Below, in pieces: positions 261-60,200 of a stretch of DNA of 64,000 nt. Source of the stretch: Candidatus Omnitrophota bacterium (lineage in GTDB: Bacteria > Omnitrophota > Gorgyraeia > Gygaellales > Profunditerraquicolaceae); the NCBI GenBank assembly GCA_003598025.1, contig QZKH01000005.1:4682-68681 (forward strand), given 5' to 3'. Numbering within the stretch: position 1 is the stretch's first letter; the number at the start of each line of letters is the position of its first letter. The translations under genes and the position numbers were made by a program. Below the pieces are notes generated by a model, which saw nothing but the letters and a program-made list of their open reading frames with translations, made no database searches and was not told the origin of the DNA.

Positions 261-3200
261 TTCTAGCCCTATATCTAATTCGCCATTCGAGAATAATAGT
301 CCATCGCTGCCGCCATTGGGAGGGCCTATTTTGAGCCATGATATGAGCGAGTATTGGATCCTTGATAAGGAGAAGACAGAAAAAGATTTTATTGTTTTGG
401 GGTTTGGTTTGAAAAAAGGAGTGTTAAATTTAGGTAACGCCGAAGTTATTATTACGCCATGGGCAGTAAGCATGAACTCCTGTTCGCTATATTCAGTTTA
501 CCGAAGCCAGAAACTTGCTCAAGAGATAGTCGTTCGTGCATATCAAGGAGCCTTACATATTGCGCGTAGGCTATGGTTGGACCCACCGCTTGTACATCGT
601 TTCTTCGGGCTTTCTTATACAGAATACATTAGGTTTCAAAATGACGAAGGTGCAGTTGAACCTGAATGGGCAGAATATCCTACTTATCCAATATTTAAGC
701 ACATAGGGTTATCCTATGGGCAAGATTTCCACGAGATATACGGTAACGCTGATATTATTAATCTTGATACTATTTTTGAGCAAAAGATTGGATTCTATCA
801 TCAGGGCGGGAATATGTATATGCGCACAGATGAATTTGAGCGCGTAGTTGAAGCATCTTGGAGGCAATGGTTTTATATCGATAGGGCTCATGCTGTGTAT
901 GGTAATAAGGTTGACCAGTATCCCTATCTTTCTACTTGGCCGGCACCTATACTGTTAATAAACGCAAGAGAAAAGGCAAAAGACCATAGAAACCATTTCT
1001 TAAAAGATAACGAGGATGATTTTATGCGGTTGCTTCCTGGTTCAGTTGATTTTAGTTCTATCTCCTCAGATATTCTGCATAGTCATTTAATGAGAGAAGA
1101 GTGGAAGATTGAAAAACATGCAATCTCGGAAGAGAGGAGGATATCGGCAGAAGGAGATTTCTATTATGGCGTTATATATATTGGCTCTATAAGTATGGTT
1201 ATTACTGATAAAGCAGTAGAATTTTATGTTTGTTCTGATATACATAGAGGGACTAATGCGGTAGGCGCGGGCAGAGAGATGATCACGCGGGCTTTCATTA
1301 CAAGTTATTTTATTGGTAAATACTTAGGTTTGAATCCAAAATGGGCGGTTGCCTATTATACTGTAGGCGAGAATGATGAGCGCGAGGAAGATAAGAATCC
1401 AGAATATCTCAACAGGCTTATTCGGCCTTGGTATGAGTTATTTTCCGAGCTCGGTTTTATGGTAAAAAACTTAAATGATAATTTAGCCAGAAGCTTTTTT
1501 GGAGATTCTGTAAGAAGGGGTCAATATTGGTATCGCGGCCTGGAAGATTTTATATACGATGCAGCAAACAATTGGATAGTTTGGTTTTATACAAACAAAA
1601 TAAGAGCTTTTGAGAGAAAGACCGGAAGTACTTCTATCAGCCATGATACGACGATGTCTGATTCTGATGTTGCTACTATTAGGAATGAGCTGGATGAGAA
1701 TTTAAGAAGAGTGTTGCGTAGGTTAAATTTTGTCGAAGCAAATACTGTATCGTTGTTCTCAAGTGGGAGTTCTCCCTGTGTTTCTAATCATCCTGAGCGA
1801 AGTGGAGGATCTATTCATCGTCGAAATTATTCGGCCTTCGGTATTAGAATGATATTAAATTCGGAGCTTCGCAGTAATTCTGTTATAAATATAAGACCAT
1901 TGCTTAATCCACAGGGTAGTTCACCTTCCGTGCCCCGTTGCAAGATATTTTGTATTCGGTTATATTCTACCTTCCGTGGCTGGTGGAGAATATTTCCAAT
2001 TTTGCAACGGGGCGTGATTGGTGGGGAGCATTTACTCTCTTTACAGAGAGGGCGTTTCGGTACGCAAGTATGGCTGCCCGCCTACCGGGCAGGCAGGCCT
2101 GCCTGCCGGACCATCGGCTTCGCCGAGAGGCGAGTAGGTAGGGTGGAGGACAATTGCGAGTTCTCAGCGGGTTCATCAATTTCATCATCGCCAATATCCG
2201 GATTAAGAATGCATGTATGGTTGGAGTGGCGTGCTTTCCTTGCCGGACTCCCTAAAGTTAAGCTAATCAGTAATGACCCCGTGTCTATGGAAATTGCCTT
2301 ACGCAGGTTAAATCACGGAGAGTACCCTGATCCATGCGGAATTGTTACTACATTCTCAAATCATCTTAAAATAGCAGCTTTAAAGTTAGCAGCGATAGAT
2401 AGTGATGAATCAAGAGATATATTAAGAGACCTTCAGGAGAGCATTGATTTCTTTAACATTATTTCAGATACAGCTGCGGATATAAAAAACATAAGCGCAA
2501 GGTTTATACATTACCGCCGTTATTCGCGCAGGTATTTACCACAGTTATGGAATGAGCAGGCAAGATTAATTCGGAATTTAATCAAATGTACTCTAGCCTA
2601 TCTTGAGAATAATAGAGAATTAACCATGCAGGTTTTTAATTTAACCGGTTTTTCTAATGAGATTCCGGTATTAGAAAGGGCGTTGTTGTACTTTCAGGAT
2701 ACCTTAGCACTGGCCCAAGGCCAGGCAATGCCGATAGAATGTAACGTGGAAGGCTTAAAGGCACAATTTAAAGACTTAGTTTCGGAGTATTCAGGTAGAT
2801 GTGATAAGTTGAAGCTGAGATTTAGGACTTACCATGGTGCGCGCCCTTTATTCATAAACGTCCCGAGAGTAATAGCTGTTGTTGCTAACTTGATTGAAAA
2901 TGCGCTGGATGCAAGAGTTGAGGGAAGGCCGTCTAAAATAGGGATCACTGTTAGTATGGATTATAAAAATGGCATTATAAGAATCGCCTGTAAGGATAAC
3001 GGCAACGGGATGGATAAATATGCCCTTACCCGGGCAAAGCACAGGGATTTTACCACTAAGGCCGAAGGCACAGGCTTAGGCCTAGCTGAGGCTCTGAATG
3101 TAACAGAAAAAGCACATAACGGCAAGCTTATTATCAGGTCGTTATTCGGAAGGTGGACGAAGGTAATATTAGTTTTGCGTTCATCAGATCCACTTGATTC

Positions 3201-9200: not shown

Positions 9201-12200
9201 CAGCCCATTAACTAGCAGGGACGGTTCTCAAACTAAAGCAGAAGCGTCCCCTATAGAAAGGGACAGTTCTCTCATGATTTCAGAACCGTCCCTTCCTAGA
9301 AAGAGTTCCAGCCCGATAGACCCAGAGAGATTACCATCAATCACAGTTAATAGATTAATTTCACATGAGATAAACTCGGATATAACCGATTGGTTGAGGA
9401 ATATCTTCTCATCATACGGAATATTTATAAAATACGGAATATCATATCTTGAAATAGACAGAATTCACATAGTAGGTTTAAACCGAGAGCCCGGAAGGGA
9501 GATTCTCCTGGTTGATCTTTTCACCGGGGAGCGCATTCTCCGTTTCCATGTTGTTTTCTATAAATCAGGGTATAACCTTGATTATGGTATTGATGACGGG
9601 TTTGAGAGGATAAGCACCAGGCTTATAGATATGCACAGAAATTTTAAGTTGATGAAATATTCCGAAGAATTAGCCGTATCGGGCATAGATACAGCCGAAA
9701 TCGTCAGATTGAATAATGAAGCATTCAGGGAGTGGATTGCCGGGCAAGAGTTTACATATTTCAACGGAGGCGGAGATGCTGCAGTCTATATAAATGATGA
9801 ACGCACTTTAGTGGTAAAAAATGTGCATGATTATAATAAGGAATTACTCAATATGCCTGCGCCTTTTAAGGGATACCTTCTTGCAGCAGAAAGATTAGGC
9901 CATTTAGTCGTGCGCTATGTGACACTGGAAGATTTGGTTGTTAAGGTCAGGAATAAAGACGGAGTGGTTGAAGAGAAACTGTTTAAGAAAGCAGTAATAC
10001 AAAAATTCGTTTACGTGTTTTTCAAAGAAGGAGTCTTTGATTCTTCTTTAGGCAAAAGAAGGTGTGAAGGTATATTGGCCGATACTATTGGGCAGGGCGA
10101 TATGCAAACAGCGAAAATGCTGATTGATGAATTCTTATCCAGTATAAGGGCGATTATGGCAAGAGGAATCGCTGACTGGGACATTAAAGCCGAGAATTAC
10201 GGATATGACCCTTCCGTGGGTTATGTCTGTTCTCTGGATATGGGTAAATTTATTGAAGCTTATAACCTGGATTTTCGTATGGCCAGAGTTTTTATAAGAA
10301 ACCTTCAGAGGACAAGAAATGAGATATATTCCTGGACTAAGGATGTTTTAGGGGAGAGAGAGGCAGTTGAGTTGCGCGATCATTTTACGGAAAGGGCAAA
10401 GGAAGTTTTTAGAGTCAGAAGCGATTTTACCTTTGACATAACAAGAAGTGTCGATGATCTTGAAGCAGAGAGCGAGTTGGAAGAAGATATTAAAGATATG
10501 TCTGATTACGAATTGAAAGAATGCCTTCCGGTCTGTTATACCGGTTTACCTGATATAAGAAGGATTGCCGTAAGAAATATCGCCGGGTACTTAAGGGGGT
10601 TAGGCAGGGCTCATAGAGGGTTAGCATTTGTATTAGCAAAGATTGGCTTTAACGAGAACGCAGCTACGTATGCAATGTTTCAGAATCTGGAGGTAAGATT
10701 TGTAGATTCTAAGATCCTGTATTTGCCAATTTATGACAATGATACTTATTGCGGTGTAAAGTTAAGAATGCTTGATAATGTTGCAACCGTTGAGGATATA
10801 CATGAGAGAAGGATTTGGGATAGGCTCAATGTAAGGCGGTATACAGAGGTGCTTAAAGAGGCAGTTAAGACGATAATAAGGTTTTATTATCCACAACAGG
10901 TCGTTTATAACACATTAGCAAGCGAATTCAGTCTTAAGATGGTAGACGTAGCTGACAGGCTTGATACGGCAAATCAGCTTGGCCGGATTAGCGGCGAGCT
11001 GGTGAATACTGAGCGCAGAAAAATATTGCTTAGTAATCTGTTTGGTATAACTGATACAAGTAATTTGGGCCCAAGGGTAAGATTAGCTTTTGATAACTTG
11101 AGGGAGAGAAGAAGGTACCCCTTTGATGTAGAATTACGGGATATATATGTCCGGGAAGAGGCAGGCAGAGTGCATACAGAACTCGTTGCTTTTGGTATGA
11201 CTACCAGAAAATGCCTTGAAATAGAGATGTTTTCTGACCTTATTAACCGCCTGAAAATACCAGAGAATATAGTTTTCCTTGCCATTGAGGAAGAATTAGG
11301 CCAGAGGGGAGGAGCAATATTCCTTGAGAAAGTTTATTTCCAGGGTACCCACGATGATCCTATTGTTCAGTCTGTATCAAGGCAGTTAAATTCTCTGTAT
11401 TCAAGGCAAAGAATGGGTATAGTTTCAGCGCTATTAGTAAAAATGGGATTAATTCCAGCTGAGCCAGTGGAGGTAACCAAGGCCAAAAGGCTGCAAAGAG
11501 AAAGATTAGCTGGTTTGCTTGAGCATTTAAAGAAGGTTAACGGAGGTAAAAATGGGAATGGTAAAACTTCGTCAAGCCCGATAAATAGTGTTATAAATAT
11601 TTTAGTTGTCAGGAAAGCGTTTTCTAAGTTGTTTGTATTATGGCCGTTGCGTGTAATTAAAGGATTTTTGTCTACCTTCTCCTCCTTCGCCCAGCATTTA
11701 TCATGCAGTGCTCCGGAGGACAAGATTACAGGTGCGCCTGAGTGCCGAAACAAAATGTTCTACCTTCCGTGGCTGGTGGGGAGCATTTACCTTCTTTTAC
11801 AAGAAGGTGTTTCGGCGCTCAGGCGTGGCTGCCTGCCTACCCGACCATCGGCTTCGCCTAGAGGCGAGCAGGCAGGGTGGGAGCGAAAACCTCGTGCAAC
11901 CGCGATATTTGCAACCACAATAGGCAGCCTCATAGCTGAAAAAGCAGGAGTTTCTCTTGATGCGCAATATATAGGTAAAGGATTATGGTTGCCTGTAGTG
12001 TTAGAGCGCATGATAGAGGGTCATAACATATTAAATGGTTGTAGATGTCCTTTATGCACTTCAAGCTCTAGCCCGATAAACTCCAGTATCAGGCTTGATG
12101 ATACCACAAAAGGGAAAATCTGCCGCCTTATGCGCCTTTATAAACAGAGTAAGATCACTATTCAAGAATTATCATTCGGGTTAAACAGGCTCACAGATAT

Positions 12201-30200: not shown

Positions 30201-33200
30201 CGATATTTTGAGCGGCGTTGAGATTGAGAAGCTGCTTTTTGGATTTGGTTTAAACAGTTTTATGTTGGGTAGTTTGAGTGGCCAGGGCATATCCGGCTTG
30301 TTGGCCACTAAAGCCAAAGCAGAAAGAGTTGGGGTAGATACATTTTCTTATAAAGAGCGCGGAGATTTCATTAATTATGCTCAGTGGCTGACAGGTTCGG
30401 CCGGCAGAAAATCAGCTGAGCTAGACAGGATTTCTGAAATATTAAGGCATATCAATCAAATTAGTGATGCCGAGGATAGGGACGACAGATTGATGTATTT
30501 ACTTTCCGCCATGGAGGATAAGTTATTACAAAGGCTTGCAGTTATGCATGCACCGATAATCAGGGACCCGTTGTATCCTTCGTCTGTAGATATGCATCTG
30601 CATTCAGCATATTCTGACTGCGCTTCGGACTCAGTCGCGCATATGGTCTATGAAGCTTATCGCCGGGGATTAAAGACAATCGCTATCAGCGATCATCAGA
30701 GTTTTGATGGGGTGATGAAGGCGTTAGCTATCGGAGAGTTATTCGGTGTCAAGGTTATCCCAGCCGTTGAACTTTACACAGGTGTTTATAGAAACGGAAG
30801 TGTCCAGGAAAGAAGGGATATATTGGTTTATTTCCCCGATGTCGATAATTTTAAGAGTTGGTATGAAGGCGGGTTTGATGATAAAACAAGGGAGATATTC
30901 AGCGATGGATGGGATAGGCATAAGGATCAGTGTTTGTGGGGTAATGTTGACGTGCATAGGGTAGTTGCCTGGGCAAAGGAGCATGGCGGCATACCGGTTT
31001 TAGCCCATCCCGGAAAATGGCATAGAGAAGTTTATGAGACTAGCTCATGGCCATACAGGGACTTTGAAGAGTTATTTATTGATACAGGGCTTTTAGGCAT
31101 AGAAATCAGCCATCCATTTATCCCTGCAGAGAAAACTATATTTTATCTGGATATGATAAGGAAATTTAACAGACTGCACCCGGAATCGCCGCTTATTTTC
31201 ACCGTAGGGACCGATGCGCATAACACCTATAATATAGGTAAAGGAAATATGTCTTTAACTGTAGTCAATATGATTAGCCGGTATCTAAGAGATAATCCTT
31301 CTCTGGTAAATCCGTTTTTGGGGGATATAAACCAGGTTCACTCAAGCTCACCGATACTTACTGATTCAGTCAGAGCGCAAGATGTATTAAGGGCATTTAG
31401 CCTGGGGCCGGATCATGCCAGTTTAGAACTATTAAAGTTTTTTGACGGACAATTAACTAGTAGATTGACAAGAGCTGAGAGAAGGGATTTGCTTAAAGCC
31501 TGGGAAAAAATATTAGTTTCTTACCCGGAGCAAATTATTAGCACCAGAAGGCATGCTTTACGGACAGCTTTAATTGCCATCTTTATTGCCAGGCATCTTC
31601 CGTTGACAAGAGAGAGCCTTATTGACTTAGTCACTGCTGCGCTTGCTCATGATTTAGGCAAGGGTTATGATAGTGAGATGATAGAAGTGGTTAACAAAAG
31701 ACGCAGGCTTAACGAAGATGAATATGCAATCATAATCAGCCATGTGAATAAATCCTTCAAAGTTTTGGGCAGGAAGAAGATAAGAATATCGGATTCTGCC
31801 GCCAAGGCAATATCAAGGCACCATCCGCGCTATTTAGAGAAAAGAGAAAGATTCAGGGTTATTGATTGGGTCTTGCATGTAGCTGATGAGATTGATGCGC
31901 GCCAGGATATGAGCCGGCCATGGAGAATAACCAAGAGAAAACTGCGCAGCTGGAACCCCGAAATGATACTTAATAATATCTCCGGTTTGAGCCTGCCGGG
32001 TAACATTTATATGGCGGTTGCGGCTTTAGTGCTGAACAGGGATAAAGAATATATCGCAGTCATAAGCGATACTTACCGTTGGTGGCAATATCTTTTACTA
32101 AAATATTATTATCTGTCTGGGTTAAGCTGGTTAAGAAGGATCTTCGGCAGGAAAATCATCGAAATCGGGATGAAATCTGGTGAAGACGAGGAAGATGTTA
32201 GTGCTTCTTCTCCAGTTAAGGATGGGATAAGTGAGACAATGCTCATATCGGGAAAATCAAAATTAGGTAGGCTTAAGTTTCTACCATTAGATGAAGAGGA
32301 GAAAACGGATGCTTTAAGAGGTTTAAGCTTGGTATTACCGGCCGTATTTGATGGAGGGAGGCATTTTCTTAAAATATCGCTTCGCAGAGAAGTTGGCGGG
32401 CGCGAAATAAATATATTACGAGAGCTTTATAGGTATGAATCGTTAAGGAATCATCTTCCTGATCGTTTTTATTCCGGGATACTTGATAGAGAAAGCAGGA
32501 GGGTCGTTTCCCGGTTTATGGATTACAACATAGTATTACAAGCCAAAACGGGATTTATTTTATTAAGCAAGGCCAGAGGTCTTGATTTATGGGAAGACCA
32601 GGAGAATATTTATGGAAGAGATGACTTAGATGCCAGGTCTAAAGAGCAGATGGTTCTGCAGCGCTTAATAAACATCGCAATGGCATTAGGCGATTTTCAT
32701 TCAAAGGGTGTTTTCCATAGGGACTTGTCAGAAGAAGAGGTATTTATAGATCCAGCCACCGGAGGCGTAAGTTTTATTGATTTTAATATAGCCGTGACAC
32801 CGGCTATAGGCATTGAATCATTAAAAGCTTTAGGTCTTGAGCAAACGGCTAAGTATAAAAATGGTAAACTTATTGATCCGAATTGGGACAGCCAAAAAAG
32901 AGATATAGCTCAATTGGCATTAATTGCTAAATCTTACTCCTATTTATTGCCAGCTGATTCTTTAGCCCGTCAGCGATTATATAGTTTATTTGGTATCGTT
33001 GCAGAAGAAAACTTTAATATCCCCGGTTTCATTGGGTTATTGCAGGCAATTAGTCGGTCCGTTTCTCCATCTCCTCAGGGACCGTTTCTGTCACTGACCA
33101 GAGAAGTGCCCCCTGAAGCCAGTTCTCCTGTAAGTGCCCCAAGCTATAGAATGACAAAAGAAGAAATTGATGCCTATACTGCTGGTTACGGCCAAAGGTT

Positions 33201-45200: not shown

Positions 45201-48200
45201 TCGTTTAGGCTTGGGAACAACAAAAGATGGGCCGAGAAGAGACCAATTATATAAATGTCTTGTTCTTGATTGCGATGGGTTACTTTGGGCGGGGATTGTT
45301 GGAGAAGACGGCTTAACAGGTATTCAGGTAACTGCATCACATCAGGATTTTCAGAGAAAAGTTATGGAGTTAAAAAATAGAGGAATTTTGTTAGCGATAA
45401 ATAGTAAGAATAATCCCGAAGATATAGGCAGCGTATTAGATAATCACCCAAGCATGATCCTAAGGAGAGAACATTTTGCTGTAGTAAAAGCAAATTGGCA
45501 GGACAAGGCTGAGAATTTGAGAGAGATCGCCCAGGAGTTAAATATAGGCACAGAGAATTTAGTATTTCTGGATGATTCTTTGCGCGAAAGGGTATTAGTA
45601 AGAATGCATTGCCCAGAGGTTTTTACTCCGGACTTGCCCGATAAAGTTAAAGACTGGGGAAATTTTTTGTTAAGTTTAGGATTTTCCGAGCAGGAGCCGT
45701 TAACAGCTGAGGATTCAAGAAGGACTGAGATGTACTCGGAGCATAGATTAAGATTAGCTTCGAGAGTACAAAGTATTTCTTTAGAAGATTATTACCTTTC
45801 GTTGGGGATGAAGATAGTAATCAGGGAAGGCAAAGCGAATTTGAATCATACCTTACGCCTGGCCCAGTTATCACAAAGAACCAATCAATTTAATCTTACT
45901 TTTCGTAGGTATAATGAGTGTGAAATAAGAGATAAGGTGATGCATACTGATGACTATAATGTTTTCAGCTTGGAGTATTCGGATAGATTCGGCTCAGCTG
46001 GAATAGTAGGTTTAATTATTGTTTATGTAGGAAGCGGCAAGCCCGAGATACTCGAATTCTGCTTAAGTTGTAGGGCTATTGGTTTGACATTAGAAGAAGC
46101 ATTTATGGGTTATGTGATTAACAGAATAAAGCAGGCAGGTTCGCAGGAGTTGACCGGAGAATATAGGATTGGGCCTAGAAACAATTTAGTGAGTACTATG
46201 TACCAGAGGCTCGGATTTAGCAAACTTGATAATGGACGTTGGAGTATTAATTTGAATGAGACTGCTATTGTTATTCCAGAGTATATTGCTGTTACCAGTC
46301 TAGAGGAAGAGGCAGTTGATGAACCTTCCGAGGAGTTAATAGAATTCACTATGAATAATCCGCCACGTACTTATATAACAGATTGTTGGAGAAACAATGG
46401 ACCATATCGTTGGGGAGAAATCGGAGGAGTAGTTTTATTTGAGGATAGCTCTACTGATTATCGTCAAGATGATTCAGGGTTTGTTTGTGCATATACTGAA
46501 TATACATTTTATTATTATGATCTCTTGGATTTAGAAAATCTTAGGTGCGAATGGTCGCCTTATTTGTTATGGGAAGCATATAAGGAGGGGATTAAGAGGA
46601 ATAAGAACGGAAGCAAGGAAAATGTAACCAGCAGCCCAATAATTCCCAGGTCCGTTTCTCTTGCCCCTCAGAGACCGTTTCTGCCACTGACCAGAGAAGT
46701 GCCCCCTGGAGATTTTATAGTTCCGTTGAAGCGTTTAATCGTTGAACCATTGATCGGAGACAATAAATCATCTTTAGCAGCTAATGGCCTAGATAATTTC
46801 CTTATTTCGGTTTTGCACCATGGGCCGCCACTTGGACAATTTATACCTGCCGTACAAACAAGCTCTCCGTTAAAATTAGACATTAATTTAATAATCCACT
46901 CTTTAATATTTTCTTCAGGAATATATTTGGCAGTTGGCAATCAAGGTGTTTCTCAAATAATCGGCGTTTTCCTTGCTTTAGTACCAAGTTTTTCTTATTT
47001 CAGCATAAAAGATATTCAGATGAACGACGAAGAGATGCCTGAATCAAAATTCGCGTTCAGGATGATAACACGGGCAATTATTGTGCTGGCCGCATTATAT
47101 CTATGCGTAGCTATCAGCAATAAGATAAACGATTTCAATACAGAAAGAATCAAGGTAGAGCAAAATTCAGGCGTAAATCAAAGCAGAAATTCAAGTTCAC
47201 CCGTTTCCTGGCGCAGTATAATTCTATTGACCGCATTACTTATTACAGTAAATTTCGATTGCGGAAATATTTCTAAAGAAGCTGCTGAGATTTCTTCCTA
47301 TCATGAAAGTTCTGTTCAGGAAACAGAGAAACCTGACCTGATGGATTTAGTCGAACGTTACGGTATCCAGCTGCATGAAAACGAAGATGCATTCGTTAAA
47401 TTTAACGTTTGCATGGATTCTCTATTCAAATACGCCTCGCAGGATATCGTTGATACATTAAACAGGCTTCGCAGAGAAAAAAGAATCGCACTTTTTATAA
47501 GCTCCAATATGAGTGGTTTTTACAATGGCTTGCTTAATCTGGGCAATGCTACAGGAGAAAGGGGAATAAGCAATCAATACGGTATTACCCTAAGGGTTGA
47601 AACAGCGGAAGGGAAAGAAATATATTTAACCATCTTTGATAAAGATATTTTCGCTGAGGCCGAGTTAACTTCAGCGACGGTTTTCCATGAAATGGCCGGG
47701 CATGTCGCCAGAACCGAGCTGGAAGGTGAATTGCCGACGATTGCGCTAAACGAAATCAGGGCCTACCAGACGGAGATGGGGCTTATTAAGGAATTACGGG
47801 ATGATATAAGGCAAACCTATAGCCGAGATGCGGAGTCTAACCCGCGAATAAAAAGTGAATTAGAGGCAGGGATTAAAAGATTCGACTCATTAATTAACGC
47901 TGCTGCGGAAAGAATCCAGGATTATAAGAATAGCGCATCTTCGCCTTTGTCTTGTGAAGAGGAAGAAGAAATAGAATTTCAGTATTATAAAAAACTCGGG
48001 TTAATTGATGAATTAGAGGACGGCAGGATTATTTTAATGTATGATTGGGAGCCAGGTAAACCGATCGATGCAATAAGATTCAGGATAACCCTTGATAGTA
48101 AGCACGATGCAGTAGCGGAAGCCCGTCATCTGGCAGCAGGCGTACTTACATTGGAACAAATGCAGACAATCCCTATGCTATGCGCCTTTCTTATGAATTT

Positions 48201-54200: not shown

Positions 54201-57200
54201 TGATATAGCTAACGCAGCAGTAGCCAGGCGTGTTACCGCAGAGGCTGTAGAAGAAATAGCCAGGAATATCAAAGATGCAGAGGCTATCCTTAGGCAATAT
54301 AGCCTTGCCTGGGTAGAGGCATTAAGAGAAAACTTGCTGGAATTACGCGTGCATGCGCAGGATTTGTTGAATAACAAGCATCCGGATTATCTCAGCTATC
54401 CGGTTTTTCAGGAAACAGTTCTTAACGCAGGCCAGATATGTGAACAGATTAGCGGCTTCCGGGATGCAAACAACACTTTCCTTATAGAACTCTCGAGATT
54501 AAACAGTGATATAGTGGGTCAGATAGAGGGTACCCATGAAGAAGTGCCAATAGGCTTTATCGAAGAATTCGCCAGGCTGCAGGATCATACAAGGAATACA
54601 CTTCTGGAATTTTCATCGCAGGAGGATTGGCAGGATGCACTTACCAAGCATGGCGAGCTGTTGGTAGGACTTCAGAGAATGAACTCTTTTGAGAGGGCTA
54701 TAAGGAATTTAAGGAGTGAGATTGATTTTTTAAGGCAGTTACAAGGGTGGCATTTTTCTCCGGAAGTTGAAGATCAAGAGCGGGAATCCAGAGGTAGGCA
54801 GACCTCTGCCCTGGAAGAGGCAGAGTCTGTTATAAATGGTATTGCTACAGGCTATGCATCCCCTTATTTGCTTGGAGCAAAGTTAGAAGAGTTTGTAGAA
54901 AATTTACCGCGTATCAATGAGTTGATAGATGAAGCGGTGTGCGGTTTGATGGGTATTATAAAAGCAAAGAGGGATTTTATAATACCTCAGTTTAGAGTCA
55001 TACATGAGATGATCAGGGCGCTTAGGGCATGGATAGTTGAAGATTTATCTCCAAGATTTTCCGGAGACCAGGCAACATTAACTAGGAGCAAGAGGGTATT
55101 TGATGATCTGGAATCTTTGTTTACCTCTCTGTTTGCTAATCTAGACCAGTGGGGAAATGACTTGGGGCAAACGGAGTACGCAAGAGTAAATAATGAGTTG
55201 ATTCAGTTAGTCGCTTCATTCGACGGACCCATGGATGGGTTGCATGCGGCTCTATTTAACTTGGTAGATTCAGAAAATAATACTATCGGGGATAAACTTC
55301 TAAGGACATGCAGGGGCATAGTAACCCATTATGTAACCGGGCATCAACTTCAGGGAGTGATGCGGCAGATACCGTATAATATTATTTTTGACGTGTCTGG
55401 CGACGCATATGGATACCCTGTGGAAGTCAGAAGAATAAGAGTTGTCGCTGGCCGTTCGTATGATACGCTTTTAAGCGACTTAGTCGGCAGGGATGACCAG
55501 GTCAGGGCTGTGCAAGATGAATATAAAACCTCTATGAAGAAATGGCAGAATTTTAAGGGAAGAGGAGAATACCCTTCGGCTGAATTTGCTTTTATGATAA
55601 AAGATGCCTTTAGCTATTATATCCGGCTGATACAGGATACATCTGCTCGGCCGCTTAGGCCTGCTTCAGAAGTATTACAGGCTTATTATCAGAAGACTTT
55701 TGCTCAAGTGAAGCGTGTTTTTGATGCTTTACCTCTTGAACAAAATATTCTGGCTCCAGGTGAATATCGTGTTGGCGGAGGCATGCGTAATGAAGAGATG
55801 AAAGAAAAAGGGTTAGTAATACTCTTGTCTATGTTGAGAGATATTTCTGCAACTATAGAAGATATGCCTGACCCGGTAAGGATTAATTTTGAGTCGGAAG
55901 ATGAAGCTCTGGCGTTTTTAAGGGTAAGCTTAGAAGACCTGGAAGGAGATGCCCCAGTTTCTACTACCTCCTCCAGCCCCCTGAAGCCAGGACCGTTTTT
56001 GTCATTGACCACAGAAGTGTCTTCGGATGCCACTTTATCTCCGTTGGATGGGAGGCTAAGTATTTCCCGCAGAGCATTCTTTGTGACTGCTGCAGTAGCT
56101 TCGGTTACAGCCGCATTTCTAGGCGGCAGAAGAGCAGAACATCTTGCGCAGGAGAAGGCGCAGAAAATGCCGGGCAGCTTACGCCTGTTTAATGAATTTT
56201 CCGCGCAACGGCAGACCGTTCTCTTTATTCACGGCGGACTGGGTAGTGATTGTTCTTGCTTTGAGCTTTTTGTTGAACGCTTCAAGGATACGTTTAATCT
56301 CGCGGGATTTGATTATGACGATAGCCTGCCATTGGAAGCGGTATCCCGGAGATTCTCCGGGGAGGTTTTGAATGTGCGCCGCGCGCCGTCAATACCCGGT
56401 GGCTTAATCATCATCGCATACTCTTGCGGCACTACCATAGTCAGGGACGCAGTGCTTAACCGGAATCCCGGCAGAAAGTTATTTAAGGAAGATGCGGTTA
56501 TAGAGATTGCTCCTATTTTAGGCGGTTCTGCCAAAGCGCTGGGAGCTGGTTCAGGTTTGAAACAAGGCGTGTTGCATATTGATGAGTTATTTGGAGGGAT
56601 ATTCGGTATCAAAGGCAGCCCGGAATTAGCCAAGACTACAGATCCGAGCTGGTTTATCCAACAGGCATTATTTAACGAAGAGGCCTGTGATACTTTTGCT
56701 GTAAGCATTGGTAAGCATATTATTATCAGGGATGAGAATGATTCGCATGCCCCTTTTAACTTAGAGGATTCTCCTAGCAAAAGGGAGTTCTTGCGTTTAT
56801 ATGAGAACGGCCTGACCCGCGCGCCGGTTGTGATTAACTTACAATCCGTTGACGGAAAGAGTATGCATAGCAAAATGCTGAAGCAAAAGCCGGTGGTAGA
56901 CTTGGTTGAAGAGTTATTAATTCCTAAAGCTCAAGCTGTGCCTTTGTCCGTAAAGAATTCATCGAGTTCTCCTGTGCAGAAGGCGGGCGCGTTGTTACGT
57001 AGTTATTCACACGTAATGTTCTTTATGGATAAAGACGGCGTAGTGACTGATAATAATAGTTTCATCACGGAAGATATGTTGAGAGCGATATTTGAACTCT
57101 TAATTAAAGGTGCTTATATTTATATTATCACCGGAGGTACATTTGAAAACAGTATTCATAATGTCATTGAGCCCCTTGAAGAATTCGCCAATACTTTAGC

Positions 57201-60200
57201 CCGACCGGAGCTCTTAAATCATTTAGTTTATTTTGTTATGAATGGCAACTATGAGATTAGTTGGCACGATGGAATTCGTTCAGAGCGTTTCTGCGGAAAA
57301 GCGATTAGCGCTGGCGATGCAGGTAAATTAGCAAAGGCTTTTTCAATAGCTTTTATTGAAAAAGCCTCTAAGAAATTATCGCTACACGATAAAGGAATAT
57401 CGCAGGCAATTTATGACGCAGAAAATTTTGAGCAAGTAGCGACTCTTCTTTTAAGGTTCGCCGGTTTTTATCCGGCGGAAATTGGTCACGTGCGGGTTGA
57501 GGCAGGGCAGATACAAGATAAGCGTGCTGTGCGTACCTGTTCTATGGTGCTTGAGTTGAACAAATCCCCAGAACTTCAATCAAGCCGCTCGTTACAAAAT
57601 ATTGATCTTATGCGTGAAATACAAGCACGAGCTAAGGATTTGTTACCGCCTCAATTAATCTCCAGCGGACATATGTTCTTGGGGCCGACGTTTTTATCAT
57701 TCCAAACCTTATTAAAAGAGGATGTGTTGGCGGCTGTAACTTCTCGCTTTCCAACGGAAGCACGAATCTTCCGGGTTGGCGCCGGTGATACTGAGGTTGA
57801 TCTTGCTTTCCTCTCTAAGATTGCTGAAACACAAGGGTATGCGTATTTTGTTGGTGAGAGTATAGGAAAGCTGCCCAAAGGCGTAGTTGCTACTCGCTTG
57901 CGTGGCCCACCTGCACATTTGTTAGAACTCCGCGCTCTCGGCCGGGCGATTAGATTACAAGCTAGCAAAGAGATTGAAGTTGATTTAAGTGTATTATCTC
58001 GCCACCAAAGAATTACCTCAAGTTCTCCTATCCTTGGAAAGAATTTCTATGCTTCACCAAGTTCATCACGATTGCCGAATACAGAATACGCAGAAGTATA
58101 TAAAGGGAACGGTTCTATTTCTTTCGATGGCGCCAGCTCGCCCCTCGGAGAAACATCTCGGGGCGAAGCCTCGCCCGTTTCGCCAGCAAAGCTGGCGAAT
58201 GAGGCGGGCTCGCCGGTAGGGCCTATGTTTTTTCTGCTCAGAAGAAAGATTAGAAGATTGCAGCGTTCATTAGAACAGGTAATCGCCATTATCAAAAGAG
58301 AAGAGCAAAAAGCAGGGCAGCTGGATTTAGTGAAGATATATATCGTGGGAAGCTTTGCCAATGGAAAGTTAAAGAGGACTTCTGACCTTGATCTTGTATT
58401 TGAACCTACGCAACGAATGTTTGGGATATTCGGTAATATCTGGTGGGCATATTTAGATGAGTGGACAGAAGAAATCGAAAGCTCTATCAAGGAGATCGAT
58501 GTTGCCGGGTATCATGCACCGTATGGACGGTACACTCTTGTGGACAGGAATCGCTGTGCGGAGGATCACACGTATTTAGAGGGTCTTTATCGGGATTCGT
58601 TTCGCTCGCCTACAGGCGTCAACGCACAAGAACAAGGAGCCCCTATCTCTAAAAAGAGATACTCAAGGACAGAGGTATACGCTGGGGTATTAGCGGCAAG
58701 ATTATCTTTTGGCAGCAGAGTTATTGATTTAGGTTGCGGTAAAGGCAAACTCGGGTCTTTATTATCGGCAGATAGCGGGATTTCTTACGTAGGGATTGAC
58801 TTGAAACTAAGTAGGTTGCTCCGTGCAAAAAAACAAACTCCAACGGGTAAATTAATTTGTGCGAATGCCTCTTATTTGCCTATCGAATGCAACTCAGCAG
58901 ATGCAGTTGTGTGTATGCATATGATCGAACACTTGGATGAATCAGAAAGACGCCAGCTGTATTCTGAAATAAAACGAATAATAAACAAGGGTGGATATGT
59001 ATTAATTGAAACACCTATACAATCTCCCGGATCCAGATGTTTAAAATTCTTGAAGATTTTGTTCGGGGCAATCCCGCGAAGATCTCTTGATGAGACCGGT
59101 TTTTCAAAGTCGCATCGAGTTTGGTTTACCGAAGAACAATTGTCAAAGGAATTAGAAGAGAATGTATCCCCCTATGAAATAGTCGATCAGAATTATTATG
59201 TGTTTCATACAGTTATTTTTCCGCGAGGATGGTTTTTTGAGTCGGTGCAGAAGGTTCTAGACAGAATTGATAAGGGCAGCCTCATTAAGAGAAGAATCGC
59301 ATTAAGCAAATACGTTTTACTTAGAAACATTGGTTCGAAGGACGGTGAGCTAGGCGAACAACAAACGAAAGCGCGTCGAACCACCAGCTCGCCGGTGCGT
59401 GAAGATAAAGTTGAGACCCAAGTTATTCGGGAACTGAAACCAAAACTTAATTTTATTGAATCGAATCCGTTTTTGCTAGCTTTTGTAGGGGTAATTTTTG
59501 GAGCATTAGGAACGGTCTTCGGAAAAATTCTGGTAACACAGGCACCACCTGAGATTTATTTGATTTTCTTCTATCCTTTTGCATATCTATTGGTTTCAGT
59601 TATGTTCGCTTTATTTGGAAAAGAAAACAGAGGAATGCTGCAAAAGGCATTCCCTGAAAAATATTCTTGGCAAAGATTGGATAGCCGACGCTGGAAGCTC
59701 GCAATCATCTTAAATTCTCTTTTGTTATGCGTAGTAACCCCTATCTGTTATTTTGTCGGCTTAAAATTAATCTCGCCAATAAGCGCAAGCGTTATTTCCC
59801 AGCTTATGCTTATTTTCACCATAATCTTGTGTAACTTATTTCTAAAAGAGAGGATAGGTTTATCAAAAGCTTCGGGGGCTATGCTGGTTGTAGCTAGCGT
59901 GCTCTTTGTGATTATTGAGCCCGAGATTAATTCGCCTTCTGGAATATCCCTATTTAGCTTGTTTAATTCATTTAAGAACGTGGGCACCATACTAATTTTG
60001 TTAAGTTGTCTTTCACTTAGTATCCAGCAGGTTATCGGGCGCCTAATCGTTACTACGCTTAAGAAAGAGGATAGTAATATTCAGATTTCACTAATGAAAA
60101 TAGGTTATCTTTTCGGCATGATATTTATGCTGCCTTTCTTTTTGTTGTGGAACTTTATATGGAATAATCTCGATTTTGTTTCTTTATGGAGTAGCTACTC

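Follow-up and report, generated by a model that had tools for sequence, protein, structure and literature searches.

GC-rich hairpins inside a giant Omnitrophota-type gene, probable members of an undescribed dispersed non-coding family

REP and BIME sequences are dispersed structured palindromes that lie between cistrons and are transcribed together with the flanking genes. They are defined by conservation of the stem, with a GTAG tetranucleotide at its 5' foot. They are thought to affect mRNA stability or processing and to be moved in Proteobacteria by a single-strand-specific HUH enzyme (RAYT, TnpA-REP), and their loops are insertion targets of IS1397 and ISKpn1. The nick sites of HUH enzymes are strand-specific single-strand hairpins with a conserved loop and variable stems, which are cut and joined at a fixed position. 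Integron attC sites carry conserved R''/L'' and L'/R' boxes (GTTRRRY) at the hairpin base, one per cassette. Prokaryotic MITEs (Correia, ERIC, BOX, SPRITE, Chunjie) are small, non-autonomous, hairpin-forming and multi-copy, and are sometimes found in-frame in genes or operons without disrupting them (PMC10969869). Rickettsia palindromic elements (RPEs) are short palindromic repeats in protein-coding genes that leave the frame intact and are translated as an extra peptide, with a conserved peptide encoded in one frame (PMC10969869). Here we describe structured elements within a giant gene of the Omnitrophota type. Such genes reach 147,000 codons, and the cleavage points of their products have been stated as unknown (West-Roberts et al.).

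The window, i.e. the whole analysed stretch of 64,000 nt, is open in frame 1 over its entire length, with 0 stops compared to 695-2044 in the other five frames. The host reading frame (1-63999, 21333 codons; this and all following features are on the + strand) encodes HATPase_c, GH77, alpha-amylase, HTH_3, cation efflux, GNAT, HD, PHP, methyltransferase and EamA domains, and its modules are parted by S-S-P-[I/L/V] motifs. We counted 63 S-S-P motifs, encoded with synonymous codons, where 4.6 are expected. The window is part of an Omnitrophota-type giant multi-enzyme gene in which unrelated enzyme modules are arranged in a chain.

Two GC-rich patches within this frame, already paired with each other in a first-pass annotation, are indeed homologous (blastn E 2e-15, nhmmer E 5e-16), and neither program detected a third copy in the 64-kb window. 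Their GC content is 55-59% in comparison with 41.6% for the window, and both fold far better than shuffled sequences (copy 2: MFE -87.2, z -6.6; copy 1: z -5.0). From one copy to the other the aligned blocks are shifted by 9793, 9755 and 9734 nt. As 3 divides none of these offsets, both copies are read in different frames throughout. The other repeat families checked in the window (D1, D5, D7, D8) are all spaced by multiples of 3. The annotation had described the patches as stop-free in the host frame and translated differently, which is confirmed including both of its translations. The termini it had assigned hold only in part: the shared ttctacc (from 1965 and 11758) and gggtgg (up to 2146 and 11880) are real, and the extents derived from them are wrong, as both elements begin further upstream, copy 1 at about 1923 and copy 2, which spans 11729-11880, at 11729.

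Copy 2 contains an intact element at 11729-11831, which was defined by its fold and by a model match at 11751-11790 (54 bits). The outer stem (11729-11752/11808-11831) is paired at 23 of 24 positions and encloses an inner stem (11753-11760/11781-11788), an invariant core (11761-11780) and a side hairpin, ACCTTCTT-TTAC-AAGAAGG (11789-11807). The same architecture is present at locus L017. Copy 2 is located inside a 165-codon segment between two junctions, 52 codons past one S-S-P (11572-11580) and 79 codons ahead of the next (12067-12075), so that the earlier placement of both copies just downstream of a junction applies to copy 1 alone, which abuts the S-S-P codons at 1918-1926.

Copy 1 is a nested composite, in which a complete second element of 84 nt sits in the loop of an older one. 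The older outer element starts with a 5' half-core, ACCTTCCGTG (1923-1932), which overlaps the S-S-P codons and is parted from its 3' half by the insertion; the same split-core pattern was found in L007, L026, L055, L059, L061 and L072. The younger element (1933-2016) comprises 80 nt, CCCCGTTG...CAACGGGG, plus a duplicated CGTG. It forms an outer stem (1929-1947/1998-2016) and an inner stem (1962-1967/1988-1993) with a 5' spacer at 1948-1961, and its invariant core (1968-1987) lies within a model match at 1958-1997 (56 bits). An increment of exactly this length separates empty from filled sites in other genomes. The extra 38 nt previously taken for an indel in copy 1 are a mis-parse and belong to this nested element. 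The remainder of the outer element (2017-2070, block D2) is 77% identical to copy 2 and consists of a degenerate 3' half-core, ATTGGTGG (2017-2024), an inner 3' arm, GGAGCATTT (2025-2033), a small hairpin, CTCTCT-TTAC-AGAGAG (2035-2050), and an orphan outer 3' arm, GTTTCGGTACGCAAGTA (2054-2070), that has no upstream partner. The best upstream duplex for a displaced 5' arm reaches -20.1 kcal/mol, which equals the shuffle mean, while copy 2 gives -44.4. Together with its 3' domain the composite occupies most of one 89-codon segment between junctions, the next S-S-P being at 2185-2193. A comparison of both copies revealed compensatory changes in the small hairpin, which reads ACCTTCTT-TTAC-AAGAAGGT in copy 2, and in the stem adjacent to the core. 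The earlier reading had missed that the invariant part is the apical loop instead of the termini, as well as the nesting of two elements in copy 1.

Downstream of the hairpins both copies share a 3' domain with 90% identity (block D6), which falls outside the family model described below. In copy 1 (2071-2146) it is composed of GCC[C/T]GCCTACC, a 21-nt palindromic extra (2087-2107), GACCATCGG, the hairpin TCGCC-GAGA-GGCGA (2120-2133) and GTAGGTAGGGTGG; in copy 2 (11832-11880) of CCTGCCTACCC, GACCATCGG, the hairpin TCGCC-TAGA-GGCGA (11854-11867) and GCAGGCAGGGTGG. Taken alone, the domain does not fold significantly better than shuffled sequences (z -1.2 for copy 2 and -2.3 for copy 1), and the long stem that had been thought to be kept by different sequences turned out to be a register shift on the repeated GCCTRCC motif. 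None of the 74 genome loci considered below contains the 3' domain sequence GACCATCGGCTTCGCCNAGAGGCGAG. Its one match among the metagenomes lies on a contig of 1.4 kb in which every frame has stops, i.e. in a non-coding context. We rejected the idea of a repeat of its own, in view of this absence and of the copy 2 fold, which is no better than shuffles.

To look beyond the window, loci were sampled by an exact match to the 19-mer core, which was found in 74 genome loci; this way of sampling overstates the breadth of core conservation. About 66 of the loci are from MAGs labelled Omnitrophota, uncultured Planctomycetales or unclassified bacterium, and the 8 loci from other taxa lack the hairpin and were set aside (about 4 chance matches are expected according to our own estimate). 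In total, 69 copies in about 60-70 Omnitrophota-type loci were analyzed, with about 55 species genomes known as carriers, which answers the earlier question about further copies. The core comprises 18-19 nt, (T)ACCTTCCGTGGCTGGTGG or (U)ACCUUCCGUGGCUGGUGG as RNA, and folds apically as a small hexaloop hairpin closed by CC/GG. It caps a variable inner stem of 4-11 bp, followed by an asymmetric internal loop or side hairpin and by a GC-rich, variable outer stem of 10-23 bp. At least five unrelated classes of outer-stem sequence share this nested-hairpin architecture, with a median of 15 outer-stem pairs versus 7 in shuffles and random anchors. The Chi octamer of E. coli, GCTGGTGG, is part of the core; the rest of the window shows no enrichment of it, and we regard its presence as coincidence.

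The stems covary while the loop stays unchanged. In 65 distinct hairpins 96.5% of the inner-stem cells are paired, compared to 48-62% in slid controls, and the inner stem shows 127 double-sided changes versus 29.5 in shuffles, a number reached by none of 500 shuffles; the covariation that had been suggested as a check is thus present. G·U pairs outnumber A·C pairs 82 to 18 in the inner and 155 to 56 in the outer stem, which indicates that the folded strand is the sense strand, either as RNA or as single-stranded DNA. Syntenic copies are 90-94% identical, with flanks at 20-89% and adjacent coding DNA at 54-75%. Their substitutions preserve pairing, and the conservation extends to the unpaired spacers. 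At gathering thresholds, no Rfam 15 family matched the window (0 matches), and a permissive search around both copies (E up to 10) yielded only eukaryotic or archaeal families that are unrelated, at sub-threshold scores of 11-17 bits. An Rfam search of L075, a tRNA/tmRNA scan and a search of viral contigs for the core were likewise without match. We found no paper on the core sequence or the family, and the giant-gene papers contain nothing on hairpin, stop-codon or junction terms. Taking this together, we think it rather likely that the two patches are members of an undescribed dispersed family of non-coding hairpins specific to Omnitrophota-type genomes.

Within the fetched loci (2-8-kb stretches around each copy), 65 of the 69 copies are located in sense orientation inside ORFs that are open across the locus. 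The core is read in all three codon phases (14, 30 and 21 copies), and every one of the 65 is stop-free in the host frame, whereas this holds for 36% of shuffles (0 stops versus 1.0 expected per frame). Stops are also missing from the other two frames in 57-62% of the copies, in comparison with 16% of coding controls. As the copies occur in all three phases and are always stop-free inside giant ORFs, ribosomes appear to read through them. This agrees with the earlier proposal of a nucleic-acid-level element that is tolerated by the ORF and is not a coding unit. Four copies lie outside long ORFs, and the three examined (L018, L048, L071) are intergenic, directly after a gene and in the same orientation. 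The nearest SSP is at a median distance of 36 aa versus 200 aa for random positions (p = 2e-5). A T tract (6 or more T among the 10 nt that follow) is present after 22% of the copies against a background of 4.7%, with upstream flanks being equally T-rich. An intrinsic (Rho-independent) terminator was rejected since the tract is present in only about one fifth of the copies and in neither window copy. In L029 and L074, small out-of-frame ORFs with strong Shine-Dalgarno sites are located downstream of the element; they resemble each other weakly and have no Pfam match.

Evidence for insertion comes from copies nested into each other. The insertion point in the older copies is the apical loop, CCGTG|GCTGG, and each insertion adds exactly 84 nt (28 codons); in all 8 cleanly nested copies the distance from CCGTG to CGTGG is 90 nt, i.e. 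increased by 84 nt. L065 has an intact loop where L072 and L059 contain the exact 84-nt insertion, and a pair of empty and filled sites within one genome (L022/L026) shows a 4-nt CGTG overlap. The insertion assumed in the annotation is thereby documented. The nested insertions are flanked by a CGTG duplication that can be parsed as 1-4 nt. L036 and L050 from the same MAG have a common 67-nt unit with 94% identity between unrelated flanks and no target-site duplication, and the flanks of about half of the simple class-A copies suggest a 2-nt match. The copies are discrete units whose flanks are unrelated within one genome. Unit lengths range from 67 to 103 nt (including 67 and 76-83), and many are not divisible by 3. 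In four pairs of related giant genes, homology breaks off 9-40 nt downstream of the element; in L044/L070 the break coincides with an indel of a 1.5-kb module, and in L005/L042 it follows directly after the SSSPV codons. The 667-codon stretch around copy 2 has no homologue among 5.8 billion proteins, and therefore an orthologous empty site is not obtainable for the window copies.

A comparison with the described systems shows partial likeness to several of them. Like RPEs, the elements are palindromic repeats located in-frame in ORFs, stop-free and translated (65 of 65), but they lack a fixed phase and a single conserved peptide. They further differ from RPEs in the invariant loop on variable stems, the strict sense orientation, the nesting into loops and the occurrence in giant multi-module Omnitrophota ORFs; we set the family beside the RPEs by these features and not by a sequence relationship. 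REPs are extragenic and conserve the stem and the GTAG foot, whereas here there is no GTAG foot, the 18-nt loop is conserved and nearly all copies are inside ORFs. With outer stems of 10-23 bp as terminal inverted repeats, a size below 500 bp and no coding capacity, the elements resemble MITEs. In contrast, MITEs typically are AT-rich and occur in both orientations; their terminal inverted repeats are conserved, they are flanked by target-site duplications, and most have a related IS. The elements described here are GC-rich and strictly sense, vary in their termini between classes and show a consistent duplication at nested sites only. The HUH and attC sites share with them the single-strand hairpin that is read strand-specifically, but unlike in attC the base of the stem is variable, the loop is conserved and there are two element loci for 63 junctions.

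On balance we favor the view of a mobile hairpin family similar to REP, MITE and RPE elements, which is tolerated in the linkers between modules and whose invariant loop would be read by a putative protein; the MITE-like or REP-like element or structured RNA motif suggested earlier was the right neighbourhood. The hairpin would be non-autonomous and spread by means of an enzyme acting in trans, which may recognise the invariant loop on the single-stranded nucleic acid of the sense strand. Survival in a giant ORF could be due to three features: the element has few stops in any of the three frames, events would persist only if they are length-neutral (multiples of 3), and landing sites would be inter-module linkers where the peptide sequence is unimportant. 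Conservation is higher in the syntenic copies than in the coding DNA beside them, so that some copies at least are probably retained for a role at the transcript level at module boundaries. Our guess would be a protein-bound barrier, a processing site or a pause site on the giant mRNA. It should be mentioned that classical MITEs and REPs conserve termini or stems, while in this family the center is conserved and the ends vary, which speaks against a mobile hairpin. The lack of a consistent target-site duplication outside the nested cases and the many unit lengths not divisible by 3 point the same way. Moreover, a host function would account better than a purely selfish repeat for the syntenic conservation, which includes the unpaired spacers. 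In this analysis, the element is the first conserved nucleic-acid landmark found inside giant Omnitrophota genes; it labels the linkers between modules, and breakpoints between related genes fall at its position. The 18-nt invariant loop provides a simple probe, and together with a covariance model it can be used for surveys of complete genomes, metatranscriptomes and proteomes.

An explanation that overlaps with the mobile hairpin and differs in emphasis is an RNA module with a host function at module boundaries, whose loop is bound by a conserved host protein and whose mobility is secondary. It might act as a barrier against 3'-to-5' exonucleases, as an RNase III/E processing site, as a translation-sensitive attenuator or as a ribosome pause that helps the upstream module to fold co-translationally or to be cleaved. 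The strict sense orientation, the intergenic copies 3' of a gene (L018, L048, L071) and the excess of G·U over A·C would fit well, and an invariant loop on covarying stems is the usual pattern of RNA hairpins read through their loop. The enrichment near S-S-P junctions, the identity of syntenic copies with maintained pairing and the T-rich tract after the GC-rich stem in about 20% of the copies point in the same direction. However, the window has two element loci for 63 junctions, and hence the element cannot punctuate modules in general. Near-identical copies within a genome, with unrelated flanks and inserted into each other, behave as repeat elements, copy 1 is still open without its 5' arm, and the window copies have no T tracts. 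We see the host-functional module as a tentative alternative, with about one chance in four. A similarly tentative and more far-reaching proposal is that the hairpins are working parts of the giant-gene system, i.e. a strand-specific signal whose loop is read by a conserved Omnitrophota protein on the giant transcript or on exposed sense DNA. They might segment, stabilise or attenuate the mRNA at module boundaries, with transcripts of 60-440 kb in this functional reading, or might be a nick or recombination site for in-frame insertion, deletion and shuffling of modules, like an integron at work within one open reading frame. If true, either role would help to explain how giant genes are built and expressed.

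Less probable, in our opinion, is a recombination site at the DNA level, in which the sense-strand hairpin would extrude and be nicked in its loop at CGTG|G by an HUH/Y1-type or integron-integrase-like enzyme, so that modules of the giant gene could be acquired, lost or exchanged beside it, comparable to an attC-like cassette system inside an ORF. The insertions exactly at CGTG|G in the loop, the breaks of homology in the four giant-gene pairs, the strand specificity and the layout of a conserved loop over variable stems as in HUH nick sites are in line with it. On the other hand, most module junctions have no element, the extra 1.5-kb module of L070 is not accompanied by a second element, and a domain scan of 60 kb of the window revealed neither a recombinase or Y1 transposase (such as RAYT) nor a reverse transcriptase, and no associated Rep, relaxase or integrase. 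The breakpoints may just mark junctions or linkers that are tolerant of rearrangement.

Removal before or during translation, by bypass as in T4 gene 60 and the yeast mitochondrial byp elements, as a tiny intron or as an intein, had been considered in the annotation with reference to the byp-type precedent, and the GC-rich structured inserts within an AT-richer gene are reminiscent of it. Bypass elements form an untranslated gap that tolerates stops, but there is no host-frame stop in 65 copies; this absence is expected under read-through and unnecessary if the element is skipped, and thus bypass is not supported. Furthermore, the nested insertions are exactly 28 codons long, Rfam contains no matching group I/II intron or ribozyme model, and 22-35 codons are far too short for an intein. 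Excision at the stem boundaries was also rejected, as the lengths modulo 3 are spread 24/18/24 and 28/17/24, with imprecise boundaries. We consider removal very improbable.

The notion of ordinary protein-level linkers, paralogous or of low complexity, is suggested by the position of both copies in linker-like segments between S-S-P motifs and has next to no probability left, as copies 1 and 2 nowhere share a frame, identical nucleotides are read in three phases over the set of 65 copies, and conservation tracks base pairing instead of codons; the frame analysis thus refutes ordinary paralogs in one frame, which had been named as the refuting alternative. The family is a natural example of one sequence that is kept for its fold and yet is translated in all three frames. 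The resulting filler peptides depend on the frame (..YLPWLVG.., ..TFRGWWG.. and ..LPSVAGG..), and gene callers, protein-family databases and protein language models would otherwise take them as protein motifs.

Two GC-rich patches in the window, copy 1 (about 1923-2146) and copy 2 (11729-11880), show DNA-level homology (blastn E 2e-15, nhmmer E 5e-16 within the window), and no third copy is present in the 64 kb. Their GC content of 55-59% compares with 41.6% for the window. As none of the offsets of the three aligned blocks (9793, 9755 and 9734 nt) is divisible by 3, both copies are translated in different frames over their full length, which bears out the first-pass annotation of two homologous patches read in different frames. 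Both fold more stably than dinucleotide shuffles, with an MFE of -87.2 kcal/mol for copy 2 (z -6.6) and -106.3 kcal/mol for copy 1 (z -5.0). The outer stem of copy 2 (11729-11752 with 11808-11831, plus strand, 23 of 24 positions paired) encloses a hairpin with TACCTTCCGTGGCTGGTGGG at its tip and a small side hairpin. Both elements begin further upstream than first annotated.

In the host gene, plus-strand frame 1 runs through all 64000 nt as 21333 codons without a stop, as revealed by a six-frame stop count that gave 695-2044 stops in the remaining five frames. A domain search of the translation yielded a chain of complete, unrelated enzymes, transporters and regulators, namely HATPase_c, a full GH77 4-alpha-glucanotransferase (E 3e-93), alpha-amylase, three XRE-type HTH domains, a cation-efflux transporter, GNAT, HD, PHP, methyltransferase and EamA. 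The gene belongs to the "multi-enzyme" class of giant Omnitrophota genes (West-Roberts et al., 2023; Nielsen & Lui, 2026). Between the domains we found 63 S-S-P motifs versus 4.6 expected (plus strand, 1-63999; 262, 1768, 1918, 2185, 3256 ... 63466) with the consensus [S/A]-S-S-P-[I/L/V]. Their codons vary synonymously, serine between TCN and AGY and proline as well. At the protein level S-S-P is thus a junction motif, and it is a candidate site for cleavage of the giant polyprotein. West-Roberts et al. state that the cleavage points of giant-gene products are unknown, and the terms "SSP" and "junction" are absent from both texts. Copy 1 occupies most of an 89-codon segment between two such junctions and copy 2 lies in one of 165 codons. 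In the other repeat families checked in the window (D1, D5, D7 and D8) the spacing is a multiple of 3, and these are protein repeats. The repeats at 33056-33118, 46649-46711 and 55967-56029 and the pairs 9210-9259/22701-22750 and 58100-58143/61505-61548, with the same kind of spacing, encode the same peptides beside S-S-P junctions, RSVSxxPQxPFLxLTREVPP, RDGSQxKAE and KGxGSIxxxGASSP; they are protein-level junction-flanking motifs and not nucleic-acid elements.

Copy 1 is a composite of two elements, the younger nested in the older (all plus strand). The older core is split into ACCTTCCGTG (1923-1932) and ATTGGTGG (2017-2024) by a complete hairpin element of 84 nt (1933-2016), whose intact core at 1968-1987 is recovered by covariance-model match and fold. 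The 38 extra nucleotides annotated earlier are a mis-parse of this 84-nt insert, which arose because the younger inner core had been aligned to the core of copy 2. From 2013 on, the two copies are collinear (77-90% identity) except for a palindromic extra of 21 nt in copy 1 (2087-2107). Of the older element the 5' arm is lost; the 3' arm remains at 2054-2070 and has no upstream partner beyond chance (-20.1 versus a shuffle mean of -20.5 kcal/mol), whereas the corresponding duplex of copy 2 reaches -44.4 kcal/mol. The 3' domain (2071-2146 and 11832-11880, plus strand) is common to these two copies only, is not significant when folded alone (z -1.2 and -2.3 versus shuffles) and is not explained by the hairpin family; the compensated long stem proposed there is really a register shift on a repeated GCCTRCC motif. 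A single further occurrence of its motif GACCATCGGCTTCGCCGAGAGGCGAG was found, at 1228-1253 of L075 (Ga0180009_10111031), a metagenome contig of 1.4 kb that has stops in each of the six frames and no Rfam match. There it is close to the palindrome CCTGCCTGCCGGCAGG, similar to the 21-nt extra of copy 1, and motif and palindrome may together form a second, rarer small element.

An exact search of a species-representative genome collection with the 19-mer core TACCTTCCGTGGCTGGTGG returned 74 stretches. Eight of them belong to unrelated taxa (Streptomyces, Bacteroidales and others), have no hairpin and were excluded; by our own estimate about 4 matches are expected by chance. The other loci come from MAGs labelled, as given in the records, Candidatus Omnitrophota, "uncultured Planctomycetales" or unclassified bacterium, and frequently carry multiple copies per contig, so the further copies sought after the first annotation exist in many Omnitrophota-type loci. 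These copies have a common architecture: from the base, the outer stem measures 10-23 bp and is followed by a side hairpin or asymmetric internal loop, 4-11 bp of inner stem and an invariant tip folding as UA-CCU-U-CC-[GUGGCU]-GG-U-GGG. By sequence, at least five unrelated classes can be told apart among the outer stems, CCCCGTTGGAAAG/CTTTCCAACGGGG (including the inner unit of copy 1), GGCCGCTGCGG/CCGCAGCGGCC, GGCCTCGGCT/GCCGGGGCC, GGAGAGGCAG/CTGCCTCTCC and GTGCCGAAAC/GTTTCGGCAC (including copy 2 and the locus L017). A covariance model of the inner hairpin found 75 copies in 518 kb, only four with a variant core, two of them differing at the first base alone, although seeding the sample on the exact core overstates the breadth of this conservation. 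The 3' end of the core, GCTGGTGG (1979-1986 and 11772-11779), equals the E. coli Chi octamer, which besides these two has one minus-strand copy in the window, at 59388; without enrichment outside the elements, this identity is probably a coincidence.

Several measures give evidence that the structure is under selection. The outer helix has a median of 15 pairs versus 7 both for shuffled flanks and for random genomic anchors. When 65 distinct inner hairpins are aligned without gaps, 96.5% of cells are paired (48-62% in slid-register controls), and the stem covariation asked for earlier is found in 127 double-sided changes versus 29.5 ± 6.4 in shuffles, none of 500 reaching this number. G·U outnumbers A·C by 82 to 18 in the inner and by 155 to 56 in the outer stem, against about 1.5 to 1 which we estimate from base composition alone. 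This excess indicates that the fold is selected on the sense strand, either as RNA or as single-stranded sense DNA, two forms which would look alike in sequence.

Among 69 copies, 65 lie in sense orientation within a frame open across the entire fetched locus (up to 8 kb) and none is antisense; three of the remaining four (L018, L048 and L071) are intergenic, shortly 3' of a gene and in the same orientation. The core of the 65 occurs in each of the three phases (14, 30 and 21 copies) and is translated as ..YLPWLVG.., ..LPSVAGG.. or ..TFRGWWG... The host frame is stop-free in 65/65 copies versus 36% of composition-matched shuffles, so ribosomes read through the element, and this speaks against the suggested bypass, splicing or other removal at the RNA or translation level. 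In the remaining two sense frames 57-62% of copies have no stop, versus 16% for neighbouring coding DNA, and the family is thus intrinsically stop-poor. Together with the covarying stems, three-phase, stop-free reading upholds the view of a nucleic-acid-level, non-coding unit tolerated by the ORF. In ORFs with S-S-P motifs, the median distance from the element to the nearest one is 36 aa versus 200 aa for random positions of the same ORFs (p = 2e-5), and several elements are flanked by them on both sides at a distance of a few codons.

Mobility is evident from empty and filled sites, in support of the MITE/REP-like reading. At a locus common to three genomes, L065 carries a GGCCGTTGCGG-class element with intact loop (...CCGTG|GCTGG...), and L072 and L059 differ there only by an exact 84-nt insertion at the loop point (CCCCGTTGG...CCAACGGGG plus a second CGTG). 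Within one genome, L022 is simple, and in L026 an insertion of 80 nt plus a 4-nt overlap interrupts the same element. In all eight cleanly nested copies CCGTG to CGTGG spans 90 nt, i.e., +84 nt or 28 codons, like the nested unit of copy 1, and internal stems and spacers differ despite the constant length. The element prefers the exposed loop of its relatives as target. L036 and L050 of one MAG share exactly 67 nt from outer stem to outer stem (94% identity) between unrelated flanks. These exact insertions and discrete units with unrelated flanks indicate a unit copied to new sites; a duplicated CGTG or 4-nt overlap accompanies the nested insertions, and no duplication is seen at L036/L050. In L007 and L061 (JACQXK010000004.1) the 3' half of the hairpin element, a unit of 38 nt (CGTGGCTGGTGGGGAGAAYYCGTTCATTTKCAACGKGG), is repeated two to three times in tandem between direct CGTGGCTGGTGG repeats created by nesting, and the giant frame stays open across the arrays. 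Unit lengths are not always a multiple of 3, and frame keeping at such sites is not explained by the present account.

Syntenic copies of different species are 90-94% identical, unpaired spacers included, versus 54-75% for adjoining coding DNA where alignable (L019/L034 and L044/L070), and their substitutions mostly keep pairing by compensatory changes or G·U transitions. Furthermore, in four pairs of related giant genes from different species (L005/L042, L044/L070, L065/L072 and L072/L059) the element is followed within 9-40 nt by the end of nucleotide homology. One of these breaks comes right after SSSPV codons and at another a 1.5-kb HAD-like module is present or absent, which suggests that modules are exchanged at these breakpoints. 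Recent exchange or gene conversion could be an alternative source of the high identity. Conservation and breakpoints together fit a host-level or recombination role better than a decaying passenger. As the likeliest benefit to the host, a protein-bound hairpin on the giant mRNA could act as decay barrier, processing or pause site at module boundaries, a guess to which we give a fairly low probability.

The element is most likely a REP/MITE/RPE-like non-autonomous hairpin repeat, folded on the sense strand, which would be moved, possibly as a single strand, by a trans-acting enzyme recognising the invariant loop. Giant ORFs would tolerate it for three reasons: stops are scarce in all of its frames, only length-neutral insertions persist, and it lands in inter-module linkers. 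REPs are likewise structured, inter-cistronic and co-transcribed repeats, and IS1397 inserts into their loops, but they are extragenic and conserve stem and GTAG foot, whereas here the loop is conserved, mostly within ORFs. HUH nick sites also show a conserved loop over variable stems; no such enzyme was found in the 60 kb of the window scanned for domains. RPEs are in-frame translated palindromes as well, but with one conserved peptide per family, and MITEs are equally small, non-autonomous and hairpin-forming but conserve termini and have duplications (PMC10969869); here the core is read in three phases, the loop is conserved and the stems vary. No Rfam family matches in the window or around either copy, the core does not occur in the searchable literature, and hairpins, stop codons or junction motifs are not mentioned by West-Roberts et al. 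(2023) or Nielsen & Lui (2026). The family is new and varies the theme of selfish or exapted palindromes in coding DNA; it is unusual in its invariant loop, strict sense orientation, three-phase translation, self-nesting and, save the four copies outside long ORFs, confinement to giant genes of one phylum.

In about 20% of copies, among them L044, L070, L053 and L060, a T-rich run directly follows the GC-rich outer stem (e.g., GGCGGGGCTTTTTATTTT); it is absent from both window copies. Such a stem and run inside an ORF looks like an intrinsic terminator, which would be active only if translation lags transcription. Downstream of the element in L029 and L074, a strong Shine-Dalgarno motif (AAGGAGGTAAC) is followed after about 34 and 97 nt, respectively, by the ATG of ORFs of 79 and 87 codons, in a frame other than the giant ORF, which stays open across them. 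Their products have no Pfam match and are only weakly similar to each other (E 0.004); these ORFs may represent small genes embedded out of frame or may have arisen by chance.
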